Shown here piece by piece: positions 28,566 through 44,501 of a stretch of 64,000 nt of DNA. Numbering within the stretch: the stretch's first letter is position 1; the number at the start of each line of letters is the position of its first letter. This DNA is from an uncultured Prevotellaceae bacterium (lineage in GTDB: Bacteria; Bacteroidota; Bacteroidia; Bacteroidales; Muribaculaceae), in contig OMUK01000101.1 in assembly GCA_900314215.1 (NCBI GenBank), forward strand, positions 9,830 through 73,829, written 5' to 3'. Made by a program: the position numbers and the translations under genes. The notes below the pieces were generated by a model. That model was not told the origin of the DNA, did no database searches, and saw nothing but the letters and a program-made list of their open reading frames with translations.

Positions 28566-29792
28566 TTATTTTTTTGCAGCCTCGATGAGGTCGAGCAGCT
28601 TCTGGGCCGCAGTCTGGGCAAAGCGCTTGTCGTTGATGTTGCAGTCTAGCTCGTCGATCTCTACATTGGGATTGTCGATACCTTGCTTGAGGGTGTCGAA
28701 GAGGGCCTTGCGGGCCACCTTGTCTTCAAATGGCTGCCCGTCGGCGTCGATCATCGACACGCCCCCGTCGGGAAGCATGAGCACCATGGGAGCCTCGGCC
28801 TTGTTCCACTTGCCGGCCATGATGCGGCCCATGGCCACATTCTCGTCGGGCGTGGTGCGCATCAGGGTCACCGTGGGGTTGTGCTGGTAGAGGTTGCGCT
28901 GGGCAAATTTTGCGGGCACCGTGTCGCGGGGGCCGAAGTTCACCATGTCGGTAGCGCCCACCGACACCACCTGGGGCACTTTGCACTTGATGGCGGCGTC
29001 GAGACGGTCGGGGCCGGCGTTGAGCACGCCGCCCACCAGCTCGTCGCACCACTCGGTGGTGGTGAGGTCGAGCACGCCCACAAAGTAGCCGGCATTGATG
29101 AGCGACTCCATCGTGCGGCCGCCCGTGCCGGTGCAGTGAAACACGAGCACCTCGTAGCCGCGCTCCTCAAGGTATCGCTTGGCCTCATCGACACACGGGG
29201 TGGTCACGCCAAACATTGTGGCGGCGATGAGCGGCTTGGTTTGCTCGGTGTCGGGGGCGAGCTTGTCCTTCAAGCCCACCATGCCGGCAACGGCAAGCAC
29301 CGCGTTGCGGAATATGGTCTTCGACACCTCGTTGAGGCCAGCCACATCCACAATCGAGGGCATCATGATGATGTCGCTCGTGCCCACATATTGCGACACA
29401 TTGCCCGAGGCCATGGTCGACACCAGCACCTTGGGCACGCCCAGGGGCAGTGCGCGCATGGCAGGCGCCACCAGCGACGAGCCGCCCGAGCCGCCCATCG
29501 AGATGATGCCGTCGAAGTGCCCCTCCTTGTAGAGCTTAGGCACCAGAGCAAGCATGCCCTTGGAGAGCGCCTCCATGGCCAGAGCGCGGTCGTGGCGCTC
29601 CACAATCTGCTTGATGTCGTAGCCAGCGGCGGCAGCCACCTGGTCGCTGCCCACATCGGGAGTGAACGCGGGGGTGAACACACCCGTGTTGATGGTATAG
29701 GTATTCAGCCCTAACTGCTCAATGAGGCCCTTGAGGTAGAGGAACTCACGGCCTTTGGTATCAAACGTACCAGCGATTGCAATTGTCTTCAT
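28566..29792 (-). CDS. Tm-1-like ATP-binding domain protein (UPF0261), canonical copy
   Basis: Start MKTIAI at 29792; GTFDTKG, GGSGG, STMASG, PSIVDVAGLN, TMFGVTTPCV, FHCTGTGG, DLTTTE, DMVNFG, HNPTVTLMRT. Confidence 0.92.
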   Translation of the reverse strand: MKTIAIAGTFDTKGREFLYLKGLIEQLGLNTYTINTGVFTPAFTPDVGSDQVAAAAGYDIKQIVERHDRALAMEALSKGMLALVPKLYKEGHFDGIISMGGSGGSSLVAPAMRALPLGVPKVLVSTMASGNVSQYVGTSDIIMMPSIVDVAGLNEVSKTIFRNAVLAVAGMVGLKDKLAPDTEQTKPLIAATMFGVTTPCVDEAKRYLEERGYEVLVFHCTGTGGRTMESLINAGYFVGVLDLTTTEWCDELVGGVLNAGPDRLDAAIKCKVPQVVSVGATDMVNFGPRDTVPAKFAQRNLYQHNPTVTLMRTTPDENVAMGRIMAGKWNKAEAPMVLMLPDGGVSMIDADGQPFEDKVARKALFDTLKQGIDNPNVEIDELDCNINDKRFAQTAAQKLLDLIEAAKK

Positions 29793-29834: not shown

Positions 29835-29901
29835 CAAAAATACAATGGCACCCACCAAGCCCAAAATAAAAACAGCGCATGAAATTTCACAATCAGCGCA
29901 T
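29835..29901 (-). promoter_or_regulatory. Promoter (-33/-7) with two upstream direct repeats 21 bp apart
   Basis: TATTTTTG (29835-29842), 19-nt spacer, TTTG (29862-29865); CAGCGCAT at 29873 and 29894. Confidence 0.6.
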
Positions 29902-29969: not shown

Positions 29970-30773
29970 TCAGTCTTGGAGGTGCTTGGGGGAGAGGCCC
30001 AGGTTTTTCTCAATGTAGCGGGTGAAATAGGAGGGAGAGGAGAAATGATAGTAGTAGGCGAGCTCCTGGATGGTGTGCTGGTGCTCGTAGAGGCGGCGGC
30101 GCATGTCGAGTTGCAGGAATCGGTTGATCCAGTAGGCGGCCGAGAAGCCGGTGCACTGGCGGGAGACGCGCGCGAGGTGCTTGGCCGAGACGCACAGCTC
30201 TTGGGCGTAGTGGTCCACGTCGCGGTGCTCGTGGTAGTCGCCGCGCTCGAGCATGGCCATGAAGCCCTTCATGAGATTGCTGTAGCGCGAGGTGGAGCGC
30301 ACTTGCCCGCGGCGCTGCGCCAGAATGTCGAAGAGGTCGAGCAACAAGAGTTGCACGCCATGCTGCAGCACCTTGTCGTAGTAGTGGTGCTCCTGATGCA
30401 ACTGGTGGTAGCTCACAAACTGGAAATTGGCGCGCATCACCATCATCTGGTCGCTGGTGAGATGCAGCACGGGGTTGAGAAAGAGCTCCATCTGCCCCTT
30501 CACGGCATAGTCCATGTCGCGGAATGAGTTGATGTAGACGGCATTGAGCAGCAAGATTTCGATCAGGCAATCGTGGCTCTGGCCCTGGGGGCTCAAGCGC
30601 GCGCAGCGGCTCACGGCGATGTCCTGCGACCGCAAGGTGATGCGGCGGCTGTTGTAGCCAAAGGTGCACTCACCACGCCTGCACAGCAAGATGGCCACAT
30701 ATTGGCCCAAGCGCGGGTCGGCAATGTCGCGCAGGCTATACTTGAAAATCACGTTTTCCTGCTCCTTCATCAC
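29970..30773 (-). CDS. AraC-family transcriptional regulator
   Basis: HRDVDHYAQELCVSAKHL, FSSPSYFTRY...GLSP; ATGA overlap with the upstream Tm-1-like gene. Confidence 0.9.
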   Translation of the reverse strand: MMKEQENVIFKYSLRDIADPRLGQYVAILLCRRGECTFGYNSRRITLRSQDIAVSRCARLSPQGQSHDCLIEILLLNAVYINSFRDMDYAVKGQMELFLNPVLHLTSDQMMVMRANFQFVSYHQLHQEHHYYDKVLQHGVQLLLLDLFDILAQRRGQVRSTSRYSNLMKGFMAMLERGDYHEHRDVDHYAQELCVSAKHLARVSRQCTGFSAAYWINRFLQLDMRRRLYEHQHTIQELAYYYHFSSPSYFTRYIEKNLGLSPKHLQD

Positions 30774-32002
30774 GATTTTTTCTTTTCCATGAGGTCGATG
30801 AGCAACTGGGCGGCATGGTGGGCAAACCGCGGGTCGTTGATGTGCAACGGCATCACCTCAATCTTCACTTTGGGATTATAGATGTGCTCTTGCAGGGCGC
30901 CGATGATGGCATTGCGGGCGTCGGGGTCGTCGAAGGGCTGACCGGGAGCGTCGAGAGCCGACACGCCGCCTGCGGGCAACAGCACCACCATGGGTGAGTG
31001 GGTATTGTTCCACTTGTCGGCCAGCACGTCGCCCACGCGGGCGCACTCCACGGCGGTGGTGCGCATGAGGGTGACGTTGGCATTGTGGCGATAGAGGTTG
31101 CGGCGGGCATAGCGCATGGGCACCGAGCTCACGGGGCCAAAGTTGACCATGTCGGTAGCGCCTATCGACACCACCTGGGGCACGCGGCAGGCGATGGCGG
31201 CGTCGAGGCGCGTGGGGCCGGCGCCCAGCATGCCGCCCAGCAGCTCGTCGCACCACTCGGTGGTGGTGAGGTCGAGCACGCCTGCAATGGCGCCCTCGTT
31301 GATAAACTTCTCCATCGTGCGGCCGCCGGCGCCAGTGCAGCTGAACTCGAGCACGTCGTAGCCGCGCTCCTCGAGGTAGCGCTTGGCCTCGCTCACGCAG
31401 TCGCTCGTGAGCGAGAACACCGAGATCGCCACCGTGGGGCGGGTCGACTTCTCGGGAGCAGGACGGTGCAGCACCATGCCGGCGATGGCGTTGACGGCAT
31501 TGACGTAGACCTGCCGCGAGATGCGGTCGAGCCCGTCGGCATTCACAATCGAGGGCATGAGCAGGATGTCGCTGGTCTCCACATAGTCCTTCACCGTTCC
31601 CGATGCCACGGTGGTGACCATGAGCTTGGGCACCCCGATGGGCAGCAAGCGCATCACGGCGGTGATGGCAGCCGTGTCCGACGAGCCGCCCAGCGAGAGC
31701 ATGCCGTCGAGCTCGCCCACGGCCTGGAGACGTAGCACCACCTTGCGCAGCCCGGCATAAATGGCAGCCACGGCACGGTGCTGGTCGCCGCTGTCGAGCA
31801 GTTGCTGCAAGTTGTCGCCAGCCAGGCGCGCGAGTTCGCCGTTATCCACATCGGGCTTGAAGAGTGGCTTGTGCAATCCCGTGTGTATCATGTAGGGACG
31901 CACGCCACGCTCCTCAAGCAGCCGCTTGATGAAGGCGAACTCGCGGCCGCGCACCCCGAAGGTGCCAGCCACCACCACGGTCTTGAGATTTTGTGTCATC
32001 AT
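30770..32002 (-). CDS. Tm-1-like (UPF0261) paralog, motif-degenerate copy
   Basis: Full-length alignment by eye to 28566-29792; conserved DLTTTEWCDEL, GATDMVNFGP, HNANVTLMRT; N-terminal motifs altered. Confidence 0.9.
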   Translation of the reverse strand: MMTQNLKTVVVAGTFGVRGREFAFIKRLLEERGVRPYMIHTGLHKPLFKPDVDNGELARLAGDNLQQLLDSGDQHRAVAAIYAGLRKVVLRLQAVGELDGMLSLGGSSDTAAITAVMRLLPIGVPKLMVTTVASGTVKDYVETSDILLMPSIVNADGLDRISRQVYVNAVNAIAGMVLHRPAPEKSTRPTVAISVFSLTSDCVSEAKRYLEERGYDVLEFSCTGAGGRTMEKFINEGAIAGVLDLTTTEWCDELLGGMLGAGPTRLDAAIACRVPQVVSIGATDMVNFGPVSSVPMRYARRNLYRHNANVTLMRTTAVECARVGDVLADKWNNTHSPMVVLLPAGGVSALDAPGQPFDDPDARNAIIGALQEHIYNPKVKIEVMPLHINDPRFAHHAAQLLIDLMEKKKS

Positions 32003-32021: not shown

Positions 32022-32029
32022 CAAATATA
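32022..32029 (-). promoter_or_regulatory. -7 box for the Tm-1-like/AraC operon
   Basis: TATATTTG on the minus strand 20 nt upstream of the ATG. Confidence 0.55.
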
Positions 32030-32253
32030 AGAAGAAATTGCGCATGAAGCGGGCCACGGCTCTCAAATTTTAAGAGATTTAACCCGCCGGTCCATCGAGG
32101 CCACTCACTCGCCCCGGCGCCTGCCGCCCGCCACAACAATTGCGGAGCGAAAATTTGCAAAAAACGCAGAATTGATTAATTTTGCACACAAGTAGGCGCG
32201 CCGACGGCCCGCCTGCTTCTTTATCACAAAACCATTTAATAAGAAATAAAATT

Positions 32254-33086: not shown

Positions 33087-35183
33087 ATGAGAAAACTACT
33101 GACTTTATGTTTTGCACTCATGTCGATGTTGATTGCCACGCCACAGCTTCGAGCCGAAGAGGTGGCGGCGACGCCGCCCGGCAACGAGGCGTCCTCCACA
33201 GGCGAGCAACTCGGCACAATGCCAAGTAGTGTGAGCGCAGTGTTCAGGCAGATCGAGCGGGTGAATGCCGCCGGCATCCAGGCTGGCGACGCCACTGTCG
33301 ACAAGGTCGAGCCTCAATCGCCCCAATTCAAGCAGGGCAAGGCACAGTTGAGCCTGAGCCCCATCGTGCAGCAAGCACGCAAGGCAAGCCGCAAGGCAGC
33401 CACCCTGGCCACCGGCGAGTATTTCTCGCGCGACTCCAGCTACTATGACAACGACAACTACAGCCACATGGCACTCGTCATTGCCGATGGCAGCGCCAAG
33501 ATGATTAATGTGTACAGCTACGGCGACACCATCGATGTGAACTACAACGTCTCGACGGGCGCCTTCTCCATCCCGGCGCAGAAGTTGTATCACTTCGACA
33601 CCTATGGCGATGTGTATGCCTGCCCGGTGAGCTTCAGCAGCGGCGCGGTGACCTACAGCACCACTGGCTCGATAAGCGGCACGGTGGCCGACGACGGCAC
33701 CATCACCCTGCAGCCCTGGGGCATCTTTGTGATAAGCGGCGACTACACCGGTTCGGTGGTCAACGCTTTCTATATGAGCGCCTGGCACCCCAAGAACGCC
33801 ACCATCAAGACCTACAATGCCAAGCATGTGCTCACGAGCTACAGCGCCTATGTAGAGCAGAATGCCGACAACGAAATCAGGGTCTACAACTTCAGCAACA
33901 CGGGCAACGTGACAGGCAACGGCTATGTGGGCGGCATCGCCTCAAGCGTGTCGGGCGGCAACACACTGGAGTATTGCGAGAACACTGGCAACGTCGAGAC
34001 CGTGCGCAGCTCGTCGTCGGCAATCTACACCGGCGGCATCGCTGCCTACGTGAGCGGCACTGCCACCAATCCCGCCTATGCGCGCTACCTGCTCAACAAG
34101 GCTCCTGTCACCAGCCAAGGCTCCTATGTGGGCGGCGTGATAGGCAACTTCAGCAATGCCGAGGCCACAGGCCTCTACAATGCTGGCAAGGTCACTGCCA
34201 CACACTACGGCACGGGCTCGAGCGCTCGCTATGCCACCTATGTGGGCGGCGTGGTTGGCATGTTCGCCGGCCAGGGCAATGTGATGTGGAATATTGCCGA
34301 CGTCACTGCCGAGGGCTACGCCGTGGGCGGTATCGCCGGCCAGGGCAACGGCACCGTGTCGCAATGCTTCAACGCAGGCAATATGCATGCCGACGGTCAG
34401 GGCAAGTCGTCGCTGGCCAGCGCCGGCGGAATATGGGGCGTGGGACGCCCGTCGATCAACGGCTGCTACAACCTGGGCACTGTGAATGGCCCCGACAAGA
34501 TTGCAGGCATCATAGTCGAATTGGCCAACACCGGCAGCATCACCAATTGCTACAACGCTGGCGTGCTCGCACCCACAGCAACTGGCGCCTCAATCGTGAA
34601 GAGCATCGCCTACCAGAGCGGAGCCACTGCCACCTGCTCGGGCAATGCCTACCTGAGCGACATCAACGAGGCTTATCCCGACACAGCACACGGCATCCCC
34701 GTCACAATTGACCAACTCATGGCGGGCGAAGGCCTTGCCGACCTCTACGTGATCAATCGCGCTGCCTATCCCGTGCCCGACTCGCTCATAGGCGAGCCCA
34801 TCGCACGCTACTATGCAGCCAGCCTGGCCTTCGCACCTGGCGACAGCGCAATGGGAGTGACGCAGAACTTCTATGTGGGCGCACTCGACAGCGTGGCATG
34901 GACCTCGAGCGACAACATCTCGATCGACGCCACTGGCACCGCCACTGCCCAAGTGGGCAATGGCTGGGTGAAAAAGTCAATCTCGTGGAATGGCATCGAC
35001 CTGGAGCGCCAGTATGCCATCAACGTGCTTGAGACCACCGGCATCAACGGCATCAACACCAATGGCAGCGACAACGCCATCGACAAGCGCATCTACAGCA
35101 TCGACGGCCGCTACATGGGCACCGATGCCAGCGTGCTGCCAAGCGGCATCTACATCCAGGGCGGAAAGAAGCACATCAAGTAA
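33087..35183 (+). CDS. Secreted T9SS-type protein with GLUG-like repeats
   Basis: Signal peptide; repeated NxGxV...YVGGI units; C-terminal TGINGI...IYSIDGRY...LPSGIYIQGGKKHIK. Confidence 0.85.
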   Translation: MRKLLTLCFALMSMLIATPQLRAEEVAATPPGNEASSTGEQLGTMPSSVSAVFRQIERVNAAGIQAGDATVDKVEPQSPQFKQGKAQLSLSPIVQQARKASRKAATLATGEYFSRDSSYYDNDNYSHMALVIADGSAKMINVYSYGDTIDVNYNVSTGAFSIPAQKLYHFDTYGDVYACPVSFSSGAVTYSTTGSISGTVADDGTITLQPWGIFVISGDYTGSVVNAFYMSAWHPKNATIKTYNAKHVLTSYSAYVEQNADNEIRVYNFSNTGNVTGNGYVGGIASSVSGGNTLEYCENTGNVETVRSSSSAIYTGGIAAYVSGTATNPAYARYLLNKAPVTSQGSYVGGVIGNFSNAEATGLYNAGKVTATHYGTGSSARYATYVGGVVGMFAGQGNVMWNIADVTAEGYAVGGIAGQGNGTVSQCFNAGNMHADGQGKSSLASAGGIWGVGRPSINGCYNLGTVNGPDKIAGIIVELANTGSITNCYNAGVLAPTATGASIVKSIAYQSGATATCSGNAYLSDINEAYPDTAHGIPVTIDQLMAGEGLADLYVINRAAYPVPDSLIGEPIARYYAASLAFAPGDSAMGVTQNFYVGALDSVAWTSSDNISIDATGTATAQVGNGWVKKSISWNGIDLERQYAINVLETTGINGINTNGSDNAIDKRIYSIDGRYMGTDASVLPSGIYIQGGKKHIK

Positions 35184-35351: not shown

Positions 35352-36230
35352 ATGCAGATAAGCAAATACATGGTGGCATCGCCACACGACTGCCAGTGGG
35401 GCCTCACGGTGAGCACCGTGGGACTCGACGAGATTGCTCCCGGCGACGCCTACCCCACCAGCGGCCACGCCGACGGCTACTACTTCGACCCGCGCAAGGG
35501 GCGCACGCTCGAGGAGTACCAGATGCTCTATCTCGTGGAGGGCGAGGGCACCTTTGAGTCGGCCACAATGACGGCCACGCGCATCAAGGGCGGCGACCTC
35601 TTCCTGCTCTTCCCCGGCGAGTGGCACACCTATTGCCCCCTGCCCAGCTCGCACTGGAAAAGCTACTGGATAGGCTACAAAGGCCGCAACATGGACGACC
35701 GCGTGAAAGCCGGCTTCCTCACTCCCGAGAAGCCCATCTACCACGTGGGCTTCTCGGCCGAGATTGTGCGCCTCTACGAGACGGCGCTCAAGACGGCTCA
35801 GAGCGAGCCAGCCTATGTGCAGCCCATTCTGGCCGGCATCGTCAACCACCTGGTGGGATTGATGTACTCGCTGGAGCGCAACCGGCAACTCAGCCAGAAG
35901 CCGAGCCACATCGACGAGATCAACCAGGCTCGCCTGCGCATACGCCAGTCGCTCGAGCAGGACCTGAGCATTCAGCGCATTGCCAAGGACCTGGGCATGA
36001 GCTACAGCAGCTTCCGCAAGTTCTTCAAGGAGTACACCGGCATCTCACCCGCCCTCTACCAGCAGGACCTGCGCCTGCAGCGTGCCAAGGAGCTGCTCAC
36101 CACCACCTCGATGAGCATCAAGAGCATAGCCTATCAACTGCAGTTTGAGTCGCCCGACTACTTCTCCAGCAAGTTTAAGAACAAGACCGGAATGAAACCC
36201 AGCGACTTCCGCTCGATGCACCAAGCTTAG
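35352..36230 (+). CDS. rhaR: AraC-family regulator, probable rhamnose regulator
   Basis: Bacteroides-type AraC (GRTLEEYQMLY, FPGEWHTY, FESPDYFS); directly upstream of rhaB. Confidence 0.8.
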   Translation: MQISKYMVASPHDCQWGLTVSTVGLDEIAPGDAYPTSGHADGYYFDPRKGRTLEEYQMLYLVEGEGTFESATMTATRIKGGDLFLLFPGEWHTYCPLPSSHWKSYWIGYKGRNMDDRVKAGFLTPEKPIYHVGFSAEIVRLYETALKTAQSEPAYVQPILAGIVNHLVGLMYSLERNRQLSQKPSHIDEINQARLRIRQSLEQDLSIQRIAKDLGMSYSSFRKFFKEYTGISPALYQQDLRLQRAKELLTTTSMSIKSIAYQLQFESPDYFSSKFKNKTGMKPSDFRSMHQA

Positions 36231-36365
36231 CCATTGCCACCCCCACACACACAGCGCGATTTTGTGCAAAACGTGAAGGCCAAAAATCAAATAACAAAGT
36301 CGCAGGCCGAAAATATGGCCTAAATTTGTGGCAACAAAAACTTAAATGACAACATCCCAAAAACT

Positions 36366-37835
36366 ATGAATACTGCAAAGAGCTATTTCGCCGTTGACCT
36401 GGGTGCCACCAGCGGCCGCACCATCGTGGGCACCATCGAGCACGGGCAGGTGAAGCTCGAGGAGCTCACCCGATTTTCCAACCCCATCATCGAGCTGCAG
36501 GGCCACTGCTACTGGGACCTCTACGCCCTCTATAACGAAATCATAAAAGGTCTCAAGACCGCCGCCAGAGAGGGCGTGCAGGTGCAAAGCATAGGTATCG
36601 ACACCTGGGGCTGCGACTTTGTGGCCGTGGGCCACGACGGCGCGTTGCTCTCCAATCCCCTCTGCTATCGCGACCCCCACACGGCCCACACCATGCAGGC
36701 CTATTTCGCCGAGTCGATCGACCGCAAGCAGGTGTATGCCAAGACGGGTATCCAGTTTATGAACTTCAACTCCTTGTTTCAGCTCTACCAGATGCACAAA
36801 GACGGCAACGTGGCCCTGTGCAACGCCAGCAAGATACTCTTCATCCCCGACGCGCTGAGCTATCTGCTCACGGGCAAGGCCGTGTGCGAGTACACCGTGG
36901 CCTCGACCTCGCAGTTGCTCAACCCCATGCAGGGTGACCTCGACCCCGACCTGCTCAAGTCGGCAGGCCTCACGCGCGAGCAGTTTGGGCCCATGACCCA
37001 GCCTGGCACCGTGATAGGCACCCTCACGCCCGAGGTGCAACGCCTCACGGGGCTGGGCGAGGTGCCAGTGGTGGCTGTGGCTGGCCACGACACTGCCTCG
37101 GCTGTGGCTGCCGTGCCAGCGCGCGACGAGCACTTTGCCTATCTCTCGTCGGGCACATGGAGCCTCATGGGCATCGAGACCCGCAATGCCATCATCAACC
37201 AGGAGAGCTACGACAAGAACTTCACCAACGAGGGCGGCATCGGCGGCACCACCCGCTTCTTGAAAAACATATGCGGCATGTGGATATATGAGTGCTGCCG
37301 CCGCGAGTGGAAGGGCACCGTCGACGTCAGCCACGCCAAGTTGCAGCACGAGGCCATGCAACAGCCTGCCTTCAGGAGCCTCATCAATCCCGACGACCCT
37401 GCCTTTGCCAACCCCACATCGATGCTCCAGGCCATCGACGACTACTGCCGCGGCACCCAGCAGCCCGTGCCCGCCAGCCCGGCGGCCTATTGCCGCTGCA
37501 TCTTCGAGTCGCTGGCCCTGCGCTACCGTCAGGTTTTCTCGTGGCTCAAGGAGTTTGCCCTCTTCCCCATCGAGGTGCTCCACATCATAGGCGGCGGCGC
37601 CATGAATGAGTATCTCGACCAGTTCACCGCCAACTCATGCGGCGTGGTGGTGCTCGCCGGTCCGCAAGAGGGCACCGCCCTGGGCAACATCATGCTCCAG
37701 GCCAAAGCCAGCGGCGAGGTGGGCGACACATGGCAGATGCGCCGCATCATTGCCCAGTCGATCTCGCTCAAGCGATTTGAGCCTCGCGACAAGCAGGCTT
37801 GGGATGCCGCCTATGAGCGTTTCCTCCATCTTTAA
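36366..37835 (+). CDS. rhaB: Rhamnulokinase
   Basis: AVDLGATSGR, GIDTWGCD, TGIQFMNFNSLFQL, SSGTWSLMG, NFTNEGG; -7 box TAAATTTG at 36321. Confidence 0.95.
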   Translation: MNTAKSYFAVDLGATSGRTIVGTIEHGQVKLEELTRFSNPIIELQGHCYWDLYALYNEIIKGLKTAAREGVQVQSIGIDTWGCDFVAVGHDGALLSNPLCYRDPHTAHTMQAYFAESIDRKQVYAKTGIQFMNFNSLFQLYQMHKDGNVALCNASKILFIPDALSYLLTGKAVCEYTVASTSQLLNPMQGDLDPDLLKSAGLTREQFGPMTQPGTVIGTLTPEVQRLTGLGEVPVVAVAGHDTASAVAAVPARDEHFAYLSSGTWSLMGIETRNAIINQESYDKNFTNEGGIGGTTRFLKNICGMWIYECCRREWKGTVDVSHAKLQHEAMQQPAFRSLINPDDPAFANPTSMLQAIDDYCRGTQQPVPASPAAYCRCIFESLALRYRQVFSWLKEFALFPIEVLHIIGGGAMNEYLDQFTANSCGVVVLAGPQEGTALGNIMLQAKASGEVGDTWQMRRIIAQSISLKRFEPRDKQAWDAAYERFLHL

Positions 37836-37886
37836 TCACCACAACACGACATAAAATAACAACAAAAAAATATAAACCACGACATT

Positions 37887-39140
37887 ATGAAATCAGAAAT
37901 CATCGAGAAAAATTACCAAGTAGCACGGGAGCGCTATGCCGCCCTGGGCATCGACACCGACAAGGCCATCGCCACCCTCGAGCAGACGCCAATAAGCCTG
38001 CATTGCTGGCAGGCCGACGACGTGGTGGGCTTTGAGCGCAACGTGGCTGCCTCGGGCGGCATCCAGACCACCGGCAACTACCCCGGCAAGGCCCGCAACA
38101 TCGACGAGCTGCGCCAGGACATCGCCGAGGTGATCTCGCTGCTGGCCGGCACCTTCCGCCTCAACCTGCACGAGACCTACGGCGAGTTTGGCGGCACATT
38201 TGTCGACCGCGACCAGGTGGAGGTGAAGCACTTCACGGGCTGGATGGACTGGGCCAAGGAGCACAACCTCAAGCTCGACTTCAACTCCACCAGCTTCTCG
38301 CACCCCAAGAGCGGCAATCTCACGCTGAGCAACCCCGACAAGGAGATACGCGACTTCTGGATTGAGCACACCAAGCGCTGCCGTCGCATCGCCGACGCCA
38401 TGGGCAAGGCCCAGGGCGACCCCTGCATGATGAACATATGGATACACGACGGCTCCAAGGACTACACCGTAGAGAAGCTGCGCTACCGCCAAATCTTGAA
38501 AGAAAGCCTCGACGACATCCTCGCCGAGCCGCTGCCCAACATGAAGACCTGCCTCGAGGCCAAGCTTTTCGGCATCGGGCTGGAGGCCTACACCGTGGGC
38601 TCCCACGACTTCTATGCCGGCTACTGCGCCAAGAATAACGTGATCTACACCCTCGACACCGGCCACTACGAGCCCACCGAGAACGTGAGCGACGCCGTGA
38701 GCTCGCTGCTGCTCTTTGTGCCCGAACTCATGCTCCACGTGTCGCGCCCCATGCACTGGGACAGCGACCACGTGACCCTCTACGACGACAACACGCGCAA
38801 CCTCTTTGCCGAGCTCGTGCGTGCCAATGCCCTCGACCGTGCCCACATAGGCCTCGACTACTTCGACGCCAGCATCAACCGCATCGGCGCCTATATCATA
38901 GGCGTGCGCGCTGCCCAGAAGAGCTTGCTGCAAGCCCTGCTCGAGCCCCTCGACACACTGCGCCGCTACGAGGACGAGGGCAAACTCTTTGAGCGCCTGG
39001 CCCTGCTCGAGGAGGAGAAGACGCTGCCGATGGGTGCCGTCTACGACTACTACAACCTGAAGCATGGCGTGCCCGTGGCCGAGGACTACATAGGCCAAGT
39101 AGTGCAATATGAGCGCGACGTGCTCGCCAAGCGCAACTAA
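37887..39140 (+). CDS. rhaA: L-rhamnose isomerase
   Basis: ISLHCWQADDV.GFE, TGNYPGKAR, LHVSRP.HWDSDHV, GLDYFDASINRI. Confidence 0.97.
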   Translation: MKSEIIEKNYQVARERYAALGIDTDKAIATLEQTPISLHCWQADDVVGFERNVAASGGIQTTGNYPGKARNIDELRQDIAEVISLLAGTFRLNLHETYGEFGGTFVDRDQVEVKHFTGWMDWAKEHNLKLDFNSTSFSHPKSGNLTLSNPDKEIRDFWIEHTKRCRRIADAMGKAQGDPCMMNIWIHDGSKDYTVEKLRYRQILKESLDDILAEPLPNMKTCLEAKLFGIGLEAYTVGSHDFYAGYCAKNNVIYTLDTGHYEPTENVSDAVSSLLLFVPELMLHVSRPMHWDSDHVTLYDDNTRNLFAELVRANALDRAHIGLDYFDASINRIGAYIIGVRAAQKSLLQALLEPLDTLRRYEDEGKLFERLALLEEEKTLPMGAVYDYYNLKHGVPVAEDYIGQVVQYERDVLAKRN

Positions 39141-39154
39141 ACGTGCAACCCGTG

Positions 39155-39193
39155 ATGCCCCCGCACCGCGGCATGCTGTCGCGGTGCGGGCAT
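39155..39193 (+). other. Intercistronic GC-rich hairpin between rhaA and rhaT
   Basis: ATGCCC(C)CGCACCGCGGCA / TGTCGCGGTGCGGGCAT, no T tail; mRNA stabiliser or partial terminator. Confidence 0.55.
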
Positions 39194-39216
39194 TCACAAC
39201 AATATGACCTATCGAA

Positions 39217-40251
39217 ATGGATATCATCATCGGACTACTGATTATCGCAGTGGGCGCCTTCTGCCAGTCGAGCTGCTACGTGCCCATCAATAAGATCAAG
39301 GACTGGTCGTGGGAGAGCTACTGGATTGTGCAGGGCATATTTGCCTGGATTGTGTTTCCCCTGCTGGGAGCCCTGCTGGCTGTGCCCGCCGGGCATAGCC
39401 TCATGGAACTCTACGGCTCGGCCAGCTCCTTCAATGTGTGGATGACCATATTCTTCGGCGTGCTGTGGGGCGTGGGCGGTCTCACCTTCGGCCTCTCGAT
39501 GCGCTACCTGGGAGTGGCCTTGGGGCAAAGCATCGCACTGGGCACCTGCGCCGCACTGGGCACCATCATGGGCCCGGTACTGCTCAATGTGTTCTTTCCC
39601 AGCCTCAACGCCCTGTCGCAGCTCACCCTGGCCGTGATATTCGGCGTGGTGGTCACCCTCGTGGGCATCGCCATCATAGGCGTGGCCGGCTCGATGAAGG
39701 CCTCCTCGCTGAGCGACGAGGAGAAGAAGGCCGCCGTGAAGGACTTCAACTTCCCCAAGGGCCTGGCCATCGCCCTGCTGGCCGGCTTCATGAGCGGTTG
39801 CTTCAACGTGGGCCTGGAATTTGGCAAGGACATCAACTTCGGCTCGCTCACCGACCCCATGTTTAAGACGCTGCCAGCCACCCTGCTTGTCACCCTGGGT
39901 GGCTTTGTGACCAATGCCGTGTACTGCTTCTTCCAGAATCAGAAGAACCACACCTGGGGCGACTACCGCAAGGGTCGCGTGTGGGCCAACAACCTGCTCT
40001 TCTGCGCCCTGGCCGGCGTGCTGTGGTACTCGCAGTTCTTCGGCCTCTCGCTGGGCAAGGGCTTCCTCACCTCGTCGCCCACGCTCATGACCCTCTCATT
40101 CTGCATCCTGATGGCTCTCAACGTGGTCTTCTCCAACGTGTGGGGCATCATCCTCAAGGAGTGGAAAGGGTGCTCGCGCAAGACCATCGTGGTACTCGTC
40201 GTGGGCATCGTGGTGCTCATCGTCTCCTCGTTTGTGCCCCAGCTCCTCTAG
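39217..40251 (+). CDS. rhaT: L-rhamnose/proton symporter
   Basis: DWSWESYW, LWGVGGLTFGLSMRYLG..LG, WYSQFF, SNVWGIILKEW. Confidence 0.95.
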   Translation: MDIIIGLLIIAVGAFCQSSCYVPINKIKDWSWESYWIVQGIFAWIVFPLLGALLAVPAGHSLMELYGSASSFNVWMTIFFGVLWGVGGLTFGLSMRYLGVALGQSIALGTCAALGTIMGPVLLNVFFPSLNALSQLTLAVIFGVVVTLVGIAIIGVAGSMKASSLSDEEKKAAVKDFNFPKGLAIALLAGFMSGCFNVGLEFGKDINFGSLTDPMFKTLPATLLVTLGGFVTNAVYCFFQNQKNHTWGDYRKGRVWANNLLFCALAGVLWYSQFFGLSLGKGFLTSSPTLMTLSFCILMALNVVFSNVWGIILKEWKGCSRKTIVVLVVGIVVLIVSSFVPQLL

Positions 40252-40435
40252 GCCATAGCACGCAGGCCGGGCGGGGCAAGAAGATTATTGCAAAATGTAA
40301 CGTTTTTTTGGTATAAATGACGCAAAATATTGCTGAAAATGCAGTAACTTTGTGAATGTGATTGTAAGGCGCCACAATTGGCTCTTGCCCACCTTCTAAA
40401 GCGCGTATATACCGCCATAGATTTAGCATAGACAC

Positions 40436-41677
40436 ATGGCTACCGAAATTCTACATCCTTTTTCCCGCCCGCTCTACGTGTTGCTCAAGCCTGTGGATGC
40501 CTCGTGCAACCTGCGGTGCAAGTATTGCTACTACCTGGAGAAGCAGAAGCTATACTCCGCCCAGGACAAGCACATCATGAGCGACGCGCTGCTCGACAAG
40601 TTCACCTACGACTACATACACGCCCAGACCATGCAAGAGGTGCTCTTCACCTGGCATGGCGGCGAGCCCCTGATGCGCCCGCTTTCCTTCTACAAGCGGG
40701 CCATGCAGCTGCAGCGGCAATATGCCGACGGGCATATCATCGCCAACTCGCTGCAGACCAACGGCACCATGCTCACCGACGAGTGGTGCGAGTTTCTCAA
40801 GCAGAACAACTGGCTGGTGGGCATCTCGATCGACGGGCCGCAGGACTTCCACGACGAGTACCGCCGCAACGCTCAGGGCGGGCCCTCGTGGGTGAAGGTG
40901 ATGCGCGGCATCAAGCTGCTCAAGAAGCATGGCGTGCAATGGAACGCCATGGCCGTGGTCAACGACTACAACGCCGACTATCCACTGGAATTCTACAACT
41001 TCTTCAAGGAGAACGGCTGCCAGTACCTGCAGCTCACGCCCATCGTGGAGCGCATCGTCGAGCACGCCGACGGCCGGCACCTGGCCACCCTGGGCGACAG
41101 CGACGACGCGCCGCTGGCCGATTTCTCGGTCACGCCCGAGCAGTGGGGCGACTTCCTGATAGCCATCTTCGACGAGTGGGTGCGCCACGACGTGGGCCGC
41201 TTCTATGTGGAGACCTTCGACTGCATGCTTGCCAACTGGGCAGGCGTTGACCCAGGCATATGCATGTATGGCAAGGAGTGCGGCCATGCAGGCGTGATGG
41301 AGTATAACGGCGATGTGTACAGCTGCGACCACTTTGTGTTTCCCGAGTACAAGCTGGGCAACATCTACACCTCCACGCTCTACAACATGCTCTACGGCGA
41401 GAAGCAGCACCGCTTCAGCCAGCTCAAGCACAAGTCGCTGCCACAGCAGTGCCTGGAGTGCGACTACGAGTTTGCCTGCCACGGCGAGTGCCCCAAAAAC
41501 CGGTTTGCGCGCGACCGCTACGGCAACCCGGGCCTCAACTACCTGTGCAAGGGCTACCACCGCTTTCTCGATCACATTGCCCCCTACATGGACTACATGA
41601 AGCAGCAACTCGACCGCAAGCAGCCGCCAGCCGCCATCATGCAGGCATTGCGCGACGGCACCTTCAAGGCCAAATAA
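40436..41677 (+). CDS. chuR: Anaerobic sulfatase-maturating radical SAM enzyme (anSME)
   Basis: CNLRCKYCYY, WHGGEPL, LQTNG, SIDGP, SPASM YSCDHFV and CHGECPKNRF; own -7 box TAACTTTG at 40345. Confidence 0.95.
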   Translation: MATEILHPFSRPLYVLLKPVDASCNLRCKYCYYLEKQKLYSAQDKHIMSDALLDKFTYDYIHAQTMQEVLFTWHGGEPLMRPLSFYKRAMQLQRQYADGHIIANSLQTNGTMLTDEWCEFLKQNNWLVGISIDGPQDFHDEYRRNAQGGPSWVKVMRGIKLLKKHGVQWNAMAVVNDYNADYPLEFYNFFKENGCQYLQLTPIVERIVEHADGRHLATLGDSDDAPLADFSVTPEQWGDFLIAIFDEWVRHDVGRFYVETFDCMLANWAGVDPGICMYGKECGHAGVMEYNGDVYSCDHFVFPEYKLGNIYTSTLYNMLYGEKQHRFSQLKHKSLPQQCLECDYEFACHGECPKNRFARDRYGNPGLNYLCKGYHRFLDHIAPYMDYMKQQLDRKQPPAAIMQALRDGTFKAK

Positions 41678-41728
41678 CTCATCGACAACCAAAAGTTTTT
41701 TTTCAAGTTTTCCTAAATCATAACCAAT

Positions 41729-43414
41729 ATGAACCGCTTTTATTTAACCGCAGGCATGCTCTCCCTGCTTCCAGGACTGCAAGCTGCCGCACAATCGCAG
41801 CAAGCCCAGCGACCCAACATCATCTACATCATGAGCGACGACCACGCCTATCAGGCCATCAGCGCCTATGGCAGCGAGGTGTCGAAGCTTGCCCCCACCC
41901 CCAACATCGACCGCATCGCCAAGGCCGGTGTCACGTTTGACCGCGCCTTTGTGGAGAACTCGCTCTCCACGCCCAGCCGCGCTTGCACCCTCACGGGCCT
42001 CTACAGCCACCAGAACGGGCAGGAACAGCTCAACGAGGGCATGGACCCCACCAAGCCCTTCGTGTCGGAACTGCTGCAAAAATGCGGCTACCAGACTGCC
42101 GTGATCGGCAAGTGGCACGTGCCTTGCGACCCCAAGGGATTTGACTACTACCACATCTACAACGGCCAGGGCGAGTACTACAACCCCAACTTCCGCGGCT
42201 CTGACACGGGCGGCAAATATGTGCAAGAGCACGGCTACTGCGTCGACCTCGTCGACAAGCACGCCAAGGAGTTTCTCGACAACCGCGACAAGTCGAAGCC
42301 CTTCTTCCTGATGGTGCACTTCAAGGCGCCACACCGCAACCAGATGCCCAACCTCAAGTATCTGGGCCTCTTCGACGACGTGAAGTTCCCGCTGCCCACG
42401 ACCTTCTGGGATGACTACTCCACCCGCCAGTCGCCAGCCCACACCCAGAAGATGAGCATCACCAATCACATGGAGCTCATCCAAGACCTGAAGGTGGTGC
42501 AGATGAAGGATTCACTCAAGGATGCCTACAACCAGGGCTTCTCGTGGTTCTGCTACCGTGCCGGCGTGGAGCGCATGACGCCCGACCAGAGAGCCGCCTG
42601 GAACCGCTACTACATGCCGCGCGGCGAGGAGTTCCTCAACGCCCATCTCACGGGCCGAGCCCTCTCGGAGTGGAAATACCAAGCCTACATGCGCGACTAC
42701 CTGGCTTGCGTGCGCAGCATCGACGATGCTGTGGGCGACATCCTCGACTACCTCAAGGCCAACGGGCTCGACGAGAACACCGTGGTCATCTACACCAGCG
42801 ACCAGGGCTTCTACCTGGGCGAGCACAACTGGTTCGACAAGCGCTTCATGTATGAGCAAAGCTTGCGCACCCCGCTGCTCATGGCCTGGAAGGGACACAT
42901 CAACCCCGGCACCCGCTGCAACGCCATGGTGCAGAACATCGACTACGCCCCCACCTTCCTCTCGCTGGCTGGCGGCAAGAAGACCGACGAGATGAGCGGC
43001 CTCGACCTGCAGCAAGTGTGGAATGGCCAGACGCCTAAGACCTGGCGCACGAGCATCTACTACCACTACTACGACTACCCGGCATTCCACCAGGTGCGCC
43101 GTCACGACGGTGTGCGCACCGACCGCTACAAGCTCATCAGCTTCTACGGCAAGGGCGGCACTCGCGCCGAGACCAACTGGTACCAGACCGACCCCAAGGC
43201 TCAGGAGTACCGCATCCTGCACTGGCTGCGCAGCATGAACTACACCGACGACAACGATCCCGACCTGAAGGACTGCTACGAGCTCTACGACCTGCAGAAC
43301 GATCCCGACGAGTTGCACAACATCTACGGCCAGCCCGGCACCGAGAAGATCACCAATGACTTGATGAAGCTCCTCAACAAGTACCGCAAAGACCTGAAGG
43401 TGCAAGAGTACTAA
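41729..43414 (+). CDS. Periplasmic Ser-type sulfatase (family S1)
   Basis: Signal peptide, PNIIYIMSDDH, SLSTPSRA (SxPxR), GKWH, YTSDQGFYLGEHNWFDKRFMYE. Confidence 0.95.
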   Translation: MNRFYLTAGMLSLLPGLQAAAQSQQAQRPNIIYIMSDDHAYQAISAYGSEVSKLAPTPNIDRIAKAGVTFDRAFVENSLSTPSRACTLTGLYSHQNGQEQLNEGMDPTKPFVSELLQKCGYQTAVIGKWHVPCDPKGFDYYHIYNGQGEYYNPNFRGSDTGGKYVQEHGYCVDLVDKHAKEFLDNRDKSKPFFLMVHFKAPHRNQMPNLKYLGLFDDVKFPLPTTFWDDYSTRQSPAHTQKMSITNHMELIQDLKVVQMKDSLKDAYNQGFSWFCYRAGVERMTPDQRAAWNRYYMPRGEEFLNAHLTGRALSEWKYQAYMRDYLACVRSIDDAVGDILDYLKANGLDENTVVIYTSDQGFYLGEHNWFDKRFMYEQSLRTPLLMAWKGHINPGTRCNAMVQNIDYAPTFLSLAGGKKTDEMSGLDLQQVWNGQTPKTWRTSIYYHYYDYPAFHQVRRHDGVRTDRYKLISFYGKGGTRAETNWYQTDPKAQEYRILHWLRSMNYTDDNDPDLKDCYELYDLQNDPDELHNIYGQPGTEKITNDLMKLLNKYRKDLKVQEY

Positions 43415-43461
43415 CGCTCACACCCGGGCATTGACCACCCGGCAATCCGCAACACAACACC

Positions 43462-43506
43462 AGGCGGGGCGTGCCACACACTCACAGTGTGCAACACGCC
43501 CCGCCT
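43462..43506. terminator. Hairpin between convergent sulfatase and rhaD
   Basis: AGGCGGGGCGTG / CACGCCCCGCCT. Confidence 0.7.
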
Positions 43507-43538
43507 GCTTGTTGATTAAGAGATTTAGTGAGGTCTCT

Positions 43539-44348
43539 TTATTTTGGCAAATGGAACACGTCGCTGATTTCTTGCATCTGCGCCTGGGTCATGCCCTCGG
43601 GCACAAAGCCCATGCAGCGGGCGTCGAGGTAAATCTTAGCGCTCTTGGAGAGCACGTCGATCTGGTCGAAGGCGTCCATCACATCCTGGCCCTTGGCAAA
43701 GACGCCATGCTTCTCCCACATCACCACGTCGTAGTCCTCGAGCTCGTGGAGCGTGGCCTGTGCCAGCTTGTTGCTGCCGGGCAGCTCATAGGGCACAATG
43801 CCCAGGCCCAGCGGGCAGAAGGCCTTGGTCTCGGGAATCATGCTCCACAGCAGGCGTGTGAGCACGTCCTTGCCCAGGAAGTCACGATTGTGGCTCATGG
43901 CCACCAGTTCGATGGGATGGGTGTGCACCGTGGCCTTGTAGCCGCTGCCCAGCTCAAGTTGGCGGTCGTGCACAGCCAGGTGCGAGGGCAACTCGCTGGT
44001 GGGAGCCACTGGGTTGTCGGCAATGATCTCGTAGCTGGCGCAGTCGTCGAGGATGCGTATCACGCTGCCATTCTCCATGGGCCATCGAGCCAGGTCGCGC
44101 ATGCGCTTGCCCGTGCCCTTGCAGAAGAAATACTGCCCTTTCAGGTGGGGCAACGCCTCGCCTATGGGGTAAACCGGCGAGATGGCAGGCAGTGCCCGAA
44201 CCTCGTCGTCGATGCAGTCGGTCACATTGATCGTGATATTGCCGCCGTTGCGCTCGGCCCAGCCGTTTTGCCACAGGTAGCCAGCCACCTCGGCAACCTT
44301 GTCCACTTCACGTTTCAGGGCGGGACGACCCTCGAGGATTGATTTCAT
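43539..44348 (-). CDS. rhaD: Rhamnulose-1-phosphate aldolase
   Basis: Start MKSILE at 44348; GWAERNGGNI, PTSELPSHL, HTHP, WSMIPE, WEKHG; -7 box TATCTTTG at 44386-44393. Confidence 0.95.
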   Translation of the reverse strand: MKSILEGRPALKREVDKVAEVAGYLWQNGWAERNGGNITINVTDCIDDEVRALPAISPVYPIGEALPHLKGQYFFCKGTGKRMRDLARWPMENGSVIRILDDCASYEIIADNPVAPTSELPSHLAVHDRQLELGSGYKATVHTHPIELVAMSHNRDFLGKDVLTRLLWSMIPETKAFCPLGLGIVPYELPGSNKLAQATLHELEDYDVVMWEKHGVFAKGQDVMDAFDQIDVLSKSAKIYLDARCMGFVPEGMTQAQMQEISDVFHLPK

Positions 44349-44501
44349 TGTTCCAGTTTTTAAATTTTGTCGTTGTTTTCTATCGCAAAGATAGGCATTC
44401 TTGCCGTCAATGCCCATCTACTTTTTGATTAATCACCCTTCAATTTTGACCAAGGCCGTGCAACATGCCAGCGCGAGGCAGGCCGCAGGCTGCAAGCGGT
44501 G

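Follow-up and report, generated by a model that had tools for sequence, protein, structure and literature searches.

A 64,000-nucleotide stretch of DNA from an uncultured Prevotellaceae bacterium of the rumen (contig OMUK01000101.1 of assembly GCA_900314215.1, positions 9,830 to 73,829; the whole stretch is called the window below) carries two paralogous genes of the UPF0261 protein family, here called copy A and copy B. The gene for copy B lies directly 5′ of a gene for an AraC-family transcriptional regulator, and copy A is followed by a triosephosphate isomerase (TIM)-barrel protein. Copy B belongs to a small, conserved clade in which residues of the ATP site and of the substrate pocket have been replaced, and its standing as a pseudo-enzyme, probably catalytically dead, is well supported. 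The best explanation that we can offer for its retention, to which we give a probability of about 0.4, is that copy B is a pseudo-kinase of copy A's family that has been kept in the regulatory half of a four-gene cassette made up of a B-AraC unit and an A-TIM unit.

Sequence, fold and altered sites of copy B

The two UPF0261 genes of the window are as follows.

Copy B: 32002..30770, minus strand; full-length UPF0261 (Tm-1/MarK-like) paralog of 410 amino acids, putative pseudo-kinase (Pfam, alignments and structure model).
Copy A: 28566..29792, minus strand; canonical UPF0261 kinase-type protein with GTFDTKG, GGSGG, PSIVD, MFGVTT and FHCTG all intact.

Copy B is a member of the UPF0261/Tm-1-like fold family. 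It matches PF06792 with 163 bits and PF23189 with 282 bits (gathering cut-off 27), so that its full length is covered, and the NCBIfam model NF002674 with 481 bits (cut-off 335). A preliminary description of the locus had stated that copy B stays full length, and the matches to both UPF0261 domains over 410 amino acids bear this out. An AlphaFold2 (AF2) model of the protein, with a predicted local distance difference test score (pLDDT) of 90.5, contains two alpha/beta/alpha-sandwich domains that superpose on those of tomato Tm-1 (chain 3wrw_A, template modelling (TM) score 0.80) and of the bacterial enzyme MarK (9mpy, TM 0.62). Copy B and copy A are 53% identical across their full length, with 60% identity in the C-domain and 43% in the N-domain.

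The five motif changes listed in the preliminary description are all present exactly as given: GTFDTKG to GTFGVRG, GGSGG to GGSSD, PSIVDVAGLN to PSIVNADGLD, TMFGVTTP to SVFSLTSD, and FHCTG to FSCTG. Their assignment to the N-domain holds for the first three; MFGVTTP and FHCTG belong to the C-terminal domain, because PF23189 begins at residue 188 of copy B. The C-domain, said to have been kept, is indeed the better conserved of the two, but residues of the substrate pocket have been altered in it as well. In the AF2 model each of the five altered motifs occupies a loop that follows the C-terminal end of a beta-strand, where domains of this type usually form their ligand crevice, and the local dips in model confidence fall in the same five loops. 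Mapping of the substitutions on a structure, as had been suggested earlier, was carried out through MarK (Saro_1862 of Novosphingobium aromaticivorans, PDB 9MPY) and Tm-1, and places the changes in the ATP and substrate sites.

Residue roles were taken from the study of MarK, the only characterised UPF0261 enzyme and an ATP-dependent kinase that yields ADP (PMC12624787), and were transferred through a HMMER alignment of copy B to 9MPY. In MarK the putative ATP site is made up of positions D14, T15 and K16; replacement of the wild-type Glu16 by Lys, which corresponds to the ATP-contacting Lys20 of Tm-1, raises the rate about 1600-fold (PMC12624787). In the C-domain the acceptor is bound through the backbone nitrogen of G195, a hydrogen bond between H219 and the phospho-acceptor oxygen, and stacking on H304 (PMC12624787). 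Copy B has G16, V17 and R18 in place of D14, T15 and K16, S197 in place of G195 and S221 in place of H219, and it retains H304 as H306. Its remodelled ATP site consists of G16-V17-R18, GGSSD109 and PSIVN154, and its remodelled substrate pocket of S197, L198 and S221. The features of an active kinase are missing at each site: copy B lacks the Asp-Thr-Lys ATP triad (D14/T15/K16 in MarK, K20 in Tm-1), it reads GGSSD and PSIVN at the Gly-rich loop GGSGG and the Asp of PSIVD, and of the acceptor pocket G195/H219/H304 it keeps H306 alone.

These positions are otherwise among the most constant in the family. In 120 canonical homologues D14, K16, the PSIVD Asp, G195, the next Val/Thr/Pro and H219 are 100% invariant, and 119 of the 120 have the last Gly of GGSGG. 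In a diverse set of 129 UPF0261 representatives clustered at 50% identity, K16 is kept in 120 of 122 and the Asp of PSIVD in 127 of 129; H219 shows more variation (112 of 129). Across the alignment, 40 of 402 positions have a residue that is found in all B-like proteins (see below) and is absent from, or present in fewer than 5% of, canonical sequences. The share is larger at the MarK ligand-contact positions, four of which, out of ten, have changed in all B-like proteins (hypergeometric P = 0.011).

Three other 50% representatives of UPF0261 are unusual. P0300 (GTH) and P0345 (ARN) also lack the ATP-site Lys in the place of DTK and may be independent degenerate lineages. P0221, of 689 amino acids, has internally repeated C-domain segments and could be either an assembly artefact or a Tm-1-like gene model of eukaryotic origin.

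Among 5.8 billion protein clusters searched for relatives of copy B, only four have the derived motifs (P0002 to P0005), at 56–70% identity. Against a profile built from the five B-like proteins these members score 760–791 bits and all other proteins at most 635, and in a 1.84-billion library clustered at 50% identity the B-like proteins are a single representative. All five share the changes K to R, GGSxG to GGSxD, PSIVD to PSIVN, V to L, and H to S or N. Despite the low overall identity, R18, D109, N154, L198, R300 and H335 are identical in all five; V318 and D325 are further new residues fixed in the clade, within which 163 columns are invariant. New residues fixed across 55–70% identity argue for a new constraint rather than for relaxation. 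The pocket of the B-like proteins has an aromatic platform (His or Tyr at 306) and a polar Ser or Asn at 221, and the clade has kept the fold, this aromatic stacking residue and most C-domain motifs. The B-like proteins are monophyletic (Shimodaira–Hasegawa-like approximate likelihood ratio test support 99), stand on a long stem and are nested with the cassette A proteins. The tree fits an origin of copy B in the duplication of an A-like gene, with acceleration afterwards; copy B has evolved 2–3 times faster than copy A.

The clade strengthens the earlier claim of a targeted loss of ligand and catalytic residues, since five proteins share replacements at otherwise invariant ATP and substrate sites. 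It also shows the degeneracy of copy B to be specific remodelling in a conserved clade, not decay. The lost canonical motifs and an evolution faster than that of copy A would suit a decaying duplicate without function, but we regard such decay as very improbable and reject it on conservation. The B open reading frame (ORF) is intact at 405–410 amino acids in five lineages, down to 55% identity and in hosts of 45–60% GC, and the B gene is identical across independent rumen samples. The 163 clade-invariant columns and the confident AF2 model likewise speak against decay.

The B-AraC-A-TIM cassette and its regulatory DNA

The further genes and DNA elements of the cassette in the window are listed here.

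AraC-family regulator: 29970..30770, minus strand; 266 amino acids from the ATG at 30770, with an alternative GTG at 30773 (Pfam HTH_18, AF2 and Foldseek).
Junction of the B stop and the AraC start: 30768..30773, minus strand; GTGATG (read directly from the sequence).
Phosphoenolpyruvate (PEP)-hydrolase-like TIM barrel, PF09370: 27672..28511, minus strand; the usual UPF0261 partner (Pfam, 413 bits).
Tandem direct repeat ATGCGC-N15-ATGCGC, in a 21-bp register: 29875..29901, minus strand; putative AraC operator upstream of A.
−7 box TATTTTTG of the TAnnTTTG type, for the A-TIM operon: 29835..29842, minus strand (sequence match).
Single half-site CATGCGCAATTT and −7 box TATATTTG in front of B: 32022..32046, minus strand; the half-site, at 32035-32046, lies 10 bp upstream of the box.

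Gene order was judged wherever a contig was long enough to show the genes. All five B-like genes stand in the order B-AraC-A-TIM, with B directly 5′ of an orthologous AraC gene, and B is never found without A and the TIM barrel. B and AraC overlap in the window and at loci L010 and L012, and are separated by 6 nucleotides (nt) at L008 and by 21 nt at L006; the distance from AraC to A is 113–174 nt in all five cassettes. Copy B thus has two properties expected of a paralog-derived co-regulator of the DhaQ/DhaS type: it lies in the regulator's operon, apart from the enzyme genes, in all five cassettes, and, as a pathway-enzyme paralog, it retains the fold while its catalytic residues are gone.

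Between cassettes, identity is 88–91% for the TIM barrel, 78–89% for A, 55–70% for B and 44–69% for AraC. B and AraC have similar fast rates and fall into the same two sub-clades. The A proteins of the cassettes form a monophyletic group (support 99/98), and neither acceleration nor special changes were seen in them. An approximately unbiased (AU) test of the A tree against the B/AraC sub-clades was not significant (p = 0.28 and 0.07) and gave no evidence of an independent exchange of A. Given the monophyly of A and the lack of a significant conflict in topology, the four genes appear to be of one origin and to travel together. Beyond these four genes no context is shared across the cassettes, and the flanking genes differ in each.

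The AraC-family protein has a C-terminal helix-turn-helix (HTH) domain (HTH_18, 54.6 bits in Pfam). In its AF2 model (pLDDT 88.6) the N-domain is a cupin-like beta-sandwich, and Foldseek matches it to ToxT and Rns and to the regulatory domains of AraC, RhaR and BgaR. With its C-terminal double HTH, its cupin-like N-domain and a putative direct-repeat operator, the protein has the make-up of a cupin-type AraC/XylS regulator. PF02311 was not detected in the window's AraC at E ≤ 1, and no PF09370 domain was found in it, so it is not a PF09370-AraC fusion of the kind described below. A sensor-less regulator was also considered and was ruled out by the fold search that revealed the cupin-like domain. 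There are only five AraC orthologues, all in this cassette. The relatives that come next, with ~35% identity, are AraC proteins of Bacteroidales that stand alone in unrelated surroundings, and scans of genome contigs and metagenome contigs with the AraC alignment found no relatives.

The junction between the two genes of the regulatory unit reads TCGTGATGAAG, in which the TGA of B overlaps either the ATG of AraC by 1 nt (TGATG) or the GTG by 4 nt (GTGA); the N-termini of the orthologues favour the ATG at 30770. The preliminary description had B overlapping the AraC start through ATGA. The overlap is present, but the window's junction is GTGATG; ATGA overlaps of B and AraC occur in L010 and L012. 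To judge from its sequence, the GTGATG junction is a translational-coupling configuration.

The spacer between AraC and A contains the tandem ATGCGC repeat in all five cassettes. In the 64-kb window this is the sole match, with 0.01 expected by chance. About 33 bp after the repeat, again in all five, lies a TAnnTTTG box, for which the other four cassettes carry the equivalent TAACTTTG. TAnnTTTG is the Bacteroidetes-type −7 promoter consensus. The 12-mer CATGCGCAATTT occurs twice in the window, once in each promoter region of the cassette (0.19 expected), and the B-AraC operon may possibly be autoregulated from this half-site. The architecture fits a regulator that would activate A-TIM and autoregulate B-AraC.

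The locus is near-identical in bovine gut metagenomes of several independent studies, with one single-nucleotide polymorphism in 4.6 kb, and is therefore not an assembly artefact. The only variant across the independent rumen metagenomes in these 4.6 kb is an A to G change at 30012, within AraC, in two runs. The cassette is rare, being found in five lineages from rumen and other metagenomes. No UPF0261 gene was found in 40 close relatives of the host, nor in 400 genomes of the same family (35 genera). The GC content at third codon positions (GC3) of the cassette, 0.76–0.87, matches that of neighbouring host genes, as it does in the other hosts, whose GC ranges over 45–60%. With its host-like GC3 despite its absence from relatives, the cassette looks like an island of old date and patchy distribution, not one acquired recently. 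A signature of recent transfer was sought and not found, the cassette's GC3 being that of the host.

In the window the cassette is flanked by susC/susD, a TPM-domain gene and a rhamnose cluster. The L-rhamnose cluster (35352-44417) comprises an AraC-type regulator, an FGGY kinase, RhaA, RhaT and a class II aldolase, with a radical-SAM/SPASM maturase and a sulfatase inserted between transporter and aldolase. A sulfatase gene directly follows the TIM barrel in L010 (8105-9934); the sulfatase of the window is about 10 kb away. A plus-strand ORF of 698 amino acids (33087-35183) has a signal-peptide-like N-terminus and Gly/Asn/Thr-rich repeats, with no Pfam match at E ≤ 1e-5.

Related modules occur with another type of regulator. 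On three Firmicute-like contigs, canonical UPF0261/PF09370 pairs are preceded by regulators of 395–419 amino acids (L017:2356-3615, L018:68-1327 and L019:4630-5817) in which a PF09370 TIM barrel is fused to an AraC HTH. Their PF09370 part is 37–39% identical to the adjoining enzyme and looks like an enzyme-derived sensor domain. The A proteins of L017 and L018 are the sister group of the cassette A proteins; L019 holds another pair. The UPF0261/PF09370 module so appears to be controlled repeatedly through a paralog of one of its own proteins.

Possible roles of copy B

We conjecture that copy B would be unable to transfer phosphate, yet would bind a pathway metabolite and/or nucleotide. Made in a fixed ratio with AraC, it would bind AraC as a macromolecular co-inducer or anti-activator, much like DhaQ (see below), and the metabolite would then be required for AraC to activate A-TIM at the tandem repeats. 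In the sister loci of the Firmicute type the AraC HTH is fused to a sensor domain paralogous to the TIM barrel, and copy B may have taken the place of that domain. Direct action of copy B on AraC is plausible and is the best single explanation, at odds that we put somewhat below even. The preliminary description had likewise read copy B as an enzyme-derived regulatory subunit, from motif loss combined with translational coupling. Its pseudo-enzyme part gains from the motif loss and the conserved clade; its coupling part applies to the three of the five cassettes in which the genes overlap.

Several observations weigh against this regulatory role. The cupin-like regulatory domain of AraC is complete, and a small molecule could act on it directly, so an external sensor is not needed. 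The B/AraC overlap is absent from two of the five cassettes. About 13% of diverse family members differ at His219, and the Lys to Arg change keeps the positive charge, so that the loss of catalysis is something we infer. The five B-like sequences are too few for co-evolution analysis. Lastly, since MarK and Tm-1 form homodimers through their N-domains, a heterodimer of A and B is equally conceivable.

Such a heterodimer belongs to a reading in which copy B serves an enzyme complex as a structural or allosteric subunit without catalytic activity, joined to A through the N-domains or bound to the TIM barrel, and in which its place beside AraC is an accident of duplication. MarK and Tm-1 do dimerise through the N-terminal subdomain (PMC12624787), the plant Tm-1 fusion described in PMC5028733 implies that UPF0261 contacts TIM barrels, most C-domain motifs are kept in B, and B is always accompanied by A and the TIM barrel where the contig is long enough. 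We nonetheless think a subunit role rather unlikely. In all five cassettes B lies in the regulator's transcription unit, with the promoter/operator region of 113–174 nt still to come before A-TIM, and its dosage should therefore follow that of AraC, not that of A. Moreover, B has diverged most in its N-domain (43% identity), where the dimer interface lies, and the cassette A proteins lack any acceleration or special changes.

The strict conservation of the replacement residues (R18, D109, N154 and L198), as in a working site, can also be read as the mark of an enzyme with altered chemistry or specificity. Copy B might use another phosphoryl donor or acceptor, or catalyse a non-kinase reaction; in one version, it would make the true AraC inducer from an incoming compound. 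Arg is able to bind phosphate, an aromatic residue at 306 (His or Tyr) and a polar one at 221 (Ser or Asn) are retained in the pocket, and His219 is not universal in the family. Set against this, the two most invariant residues, Lys16 (120/122) and the PSIVD Asp (127/129), have been lost together with the change of the loop Gly to Asp, a pattern common in dead enzymes, and replacing Asp by Asn, or Lys by Arg, is a classic way of inactivating an enzyme. In p60src neither Arg nor His can replace Lys-295 of the ATP site, according to the title of Kamps and Sefton (1986), cited in PMC12624787. Altered chemistry is, on balance, an unlikely account of copy B.

A pseudo-kinase retained for regulation would have wider consequences. 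As a tentative generalisation, UPF0261/PF09370 (split Tm-1) modules may be under AraC regulators whose sensing passes through catalytically silent paralogs of the module proteins: a fused TIM barrel in the Firmicute-type loci or, in the rare Bacteroidales cassette, a free UPF0261 pseudo-kinase acting as macromolecular inducer by binding to a cupin AraC of the host type. If this is true, copy B would be the first pseudo-kinase of the UPF0261 family and the first paralog-derived protein co-inducer described for the AraC regulator of a catabolic operon, and the protein-binding inhibitor activity of plant Tm-1 would appear to be an old property of the fold. UPF0261 is very widespread, with about 5,000 clusters at 50% identity matching the profile, while its known functions are limited to a single biochemical activity, that of MarK (2025), and a single biological role, that of Tm-1. 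The B clade, with Lys16 and the PSIVD Asp replaced and with its fixed link to AraC, points to the catalytic residues. It also supplies a ready-made variant, putatively inactive but able to bind ligand, with which the substrate of A-TIM could be sought, and a bacterial case, open to testing, in which a duplicated enzyme would have been recruited to regulate genes. Its biological reach is limited, the cassette being confined to five lineages and missing from 400 genomes of the host family.

Comparison with known systems

MarK and copy B share the same two-domain fold (E = 6.7e-48, TM 0.62), and the pocket of copy B keeps the aromatic equivalent of His304. The substrates of MarK are phenolic aromatic monomers (PMC12624787). 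Copy B differs from it in having G-V-R for D14-T15-K16 and Ser for both G195 and H219, and MarK stands alone, with neither a TIM-barrel partner nor an AraC-coupled paralog. The closest solved structure to copy B is that of tomato Tm-1 (PDB 3WRW, 3WRX and 3WRY; E = 1e-76, TM 0.80). Like MarK, Tm-1 is a homodimer joined through its N-terminal subdomain, and it binds the tobamovirus helicase domain through an ATP-bridged surface of the N-domain (PMC12624787). UPF0261 and PF09370 are fused in plant Tm-1, as PMC5028733 reports. Tm-1 is thus a precedent for a UPF0261 protein that acts as a binding regulator. Unlike copy B, it keeps the ATP-binding Lys20, is fused to its TIM barrel, is eukaryotic and has no link to a transcription factor.

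The mechanism proposed for copy B and AraC is that of DhaQ and DhaS of Lactococcus lactis, a system to be set beside DhaK/DhaL-DhaR of Escherichia coli. DhaQ is a non-catalytic paralog of a pathway kinase subunit. It binds dihydroxyacetone and serves as the macromolecular inducer, or co-activator, of the regulator DhaS (PMC4325133). The two systems differ in fold (Dha kinase against UPF0261) and in the family of the regulator (TetR against AraC), and the binding of copy B to AraC is so far a proposal.

A further parallel is provided by the PF09370-AraC fusions, which serve the same pathway module and in which a paralog of a pathway protein has likewise been recruited as the sensing part. There the paralog is that of the TIM barrel, is fused to the regulator and replaces the cupin domain; here it is a free UPF0261 protein, and AraC keeps its cupin-like domain. 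Because the sister A-TIM loci use AraC regulators with TIM-paralog sensors, the co-opting of a pathway enzyme as a sensor, as we propose for copy B, has a close precedent.

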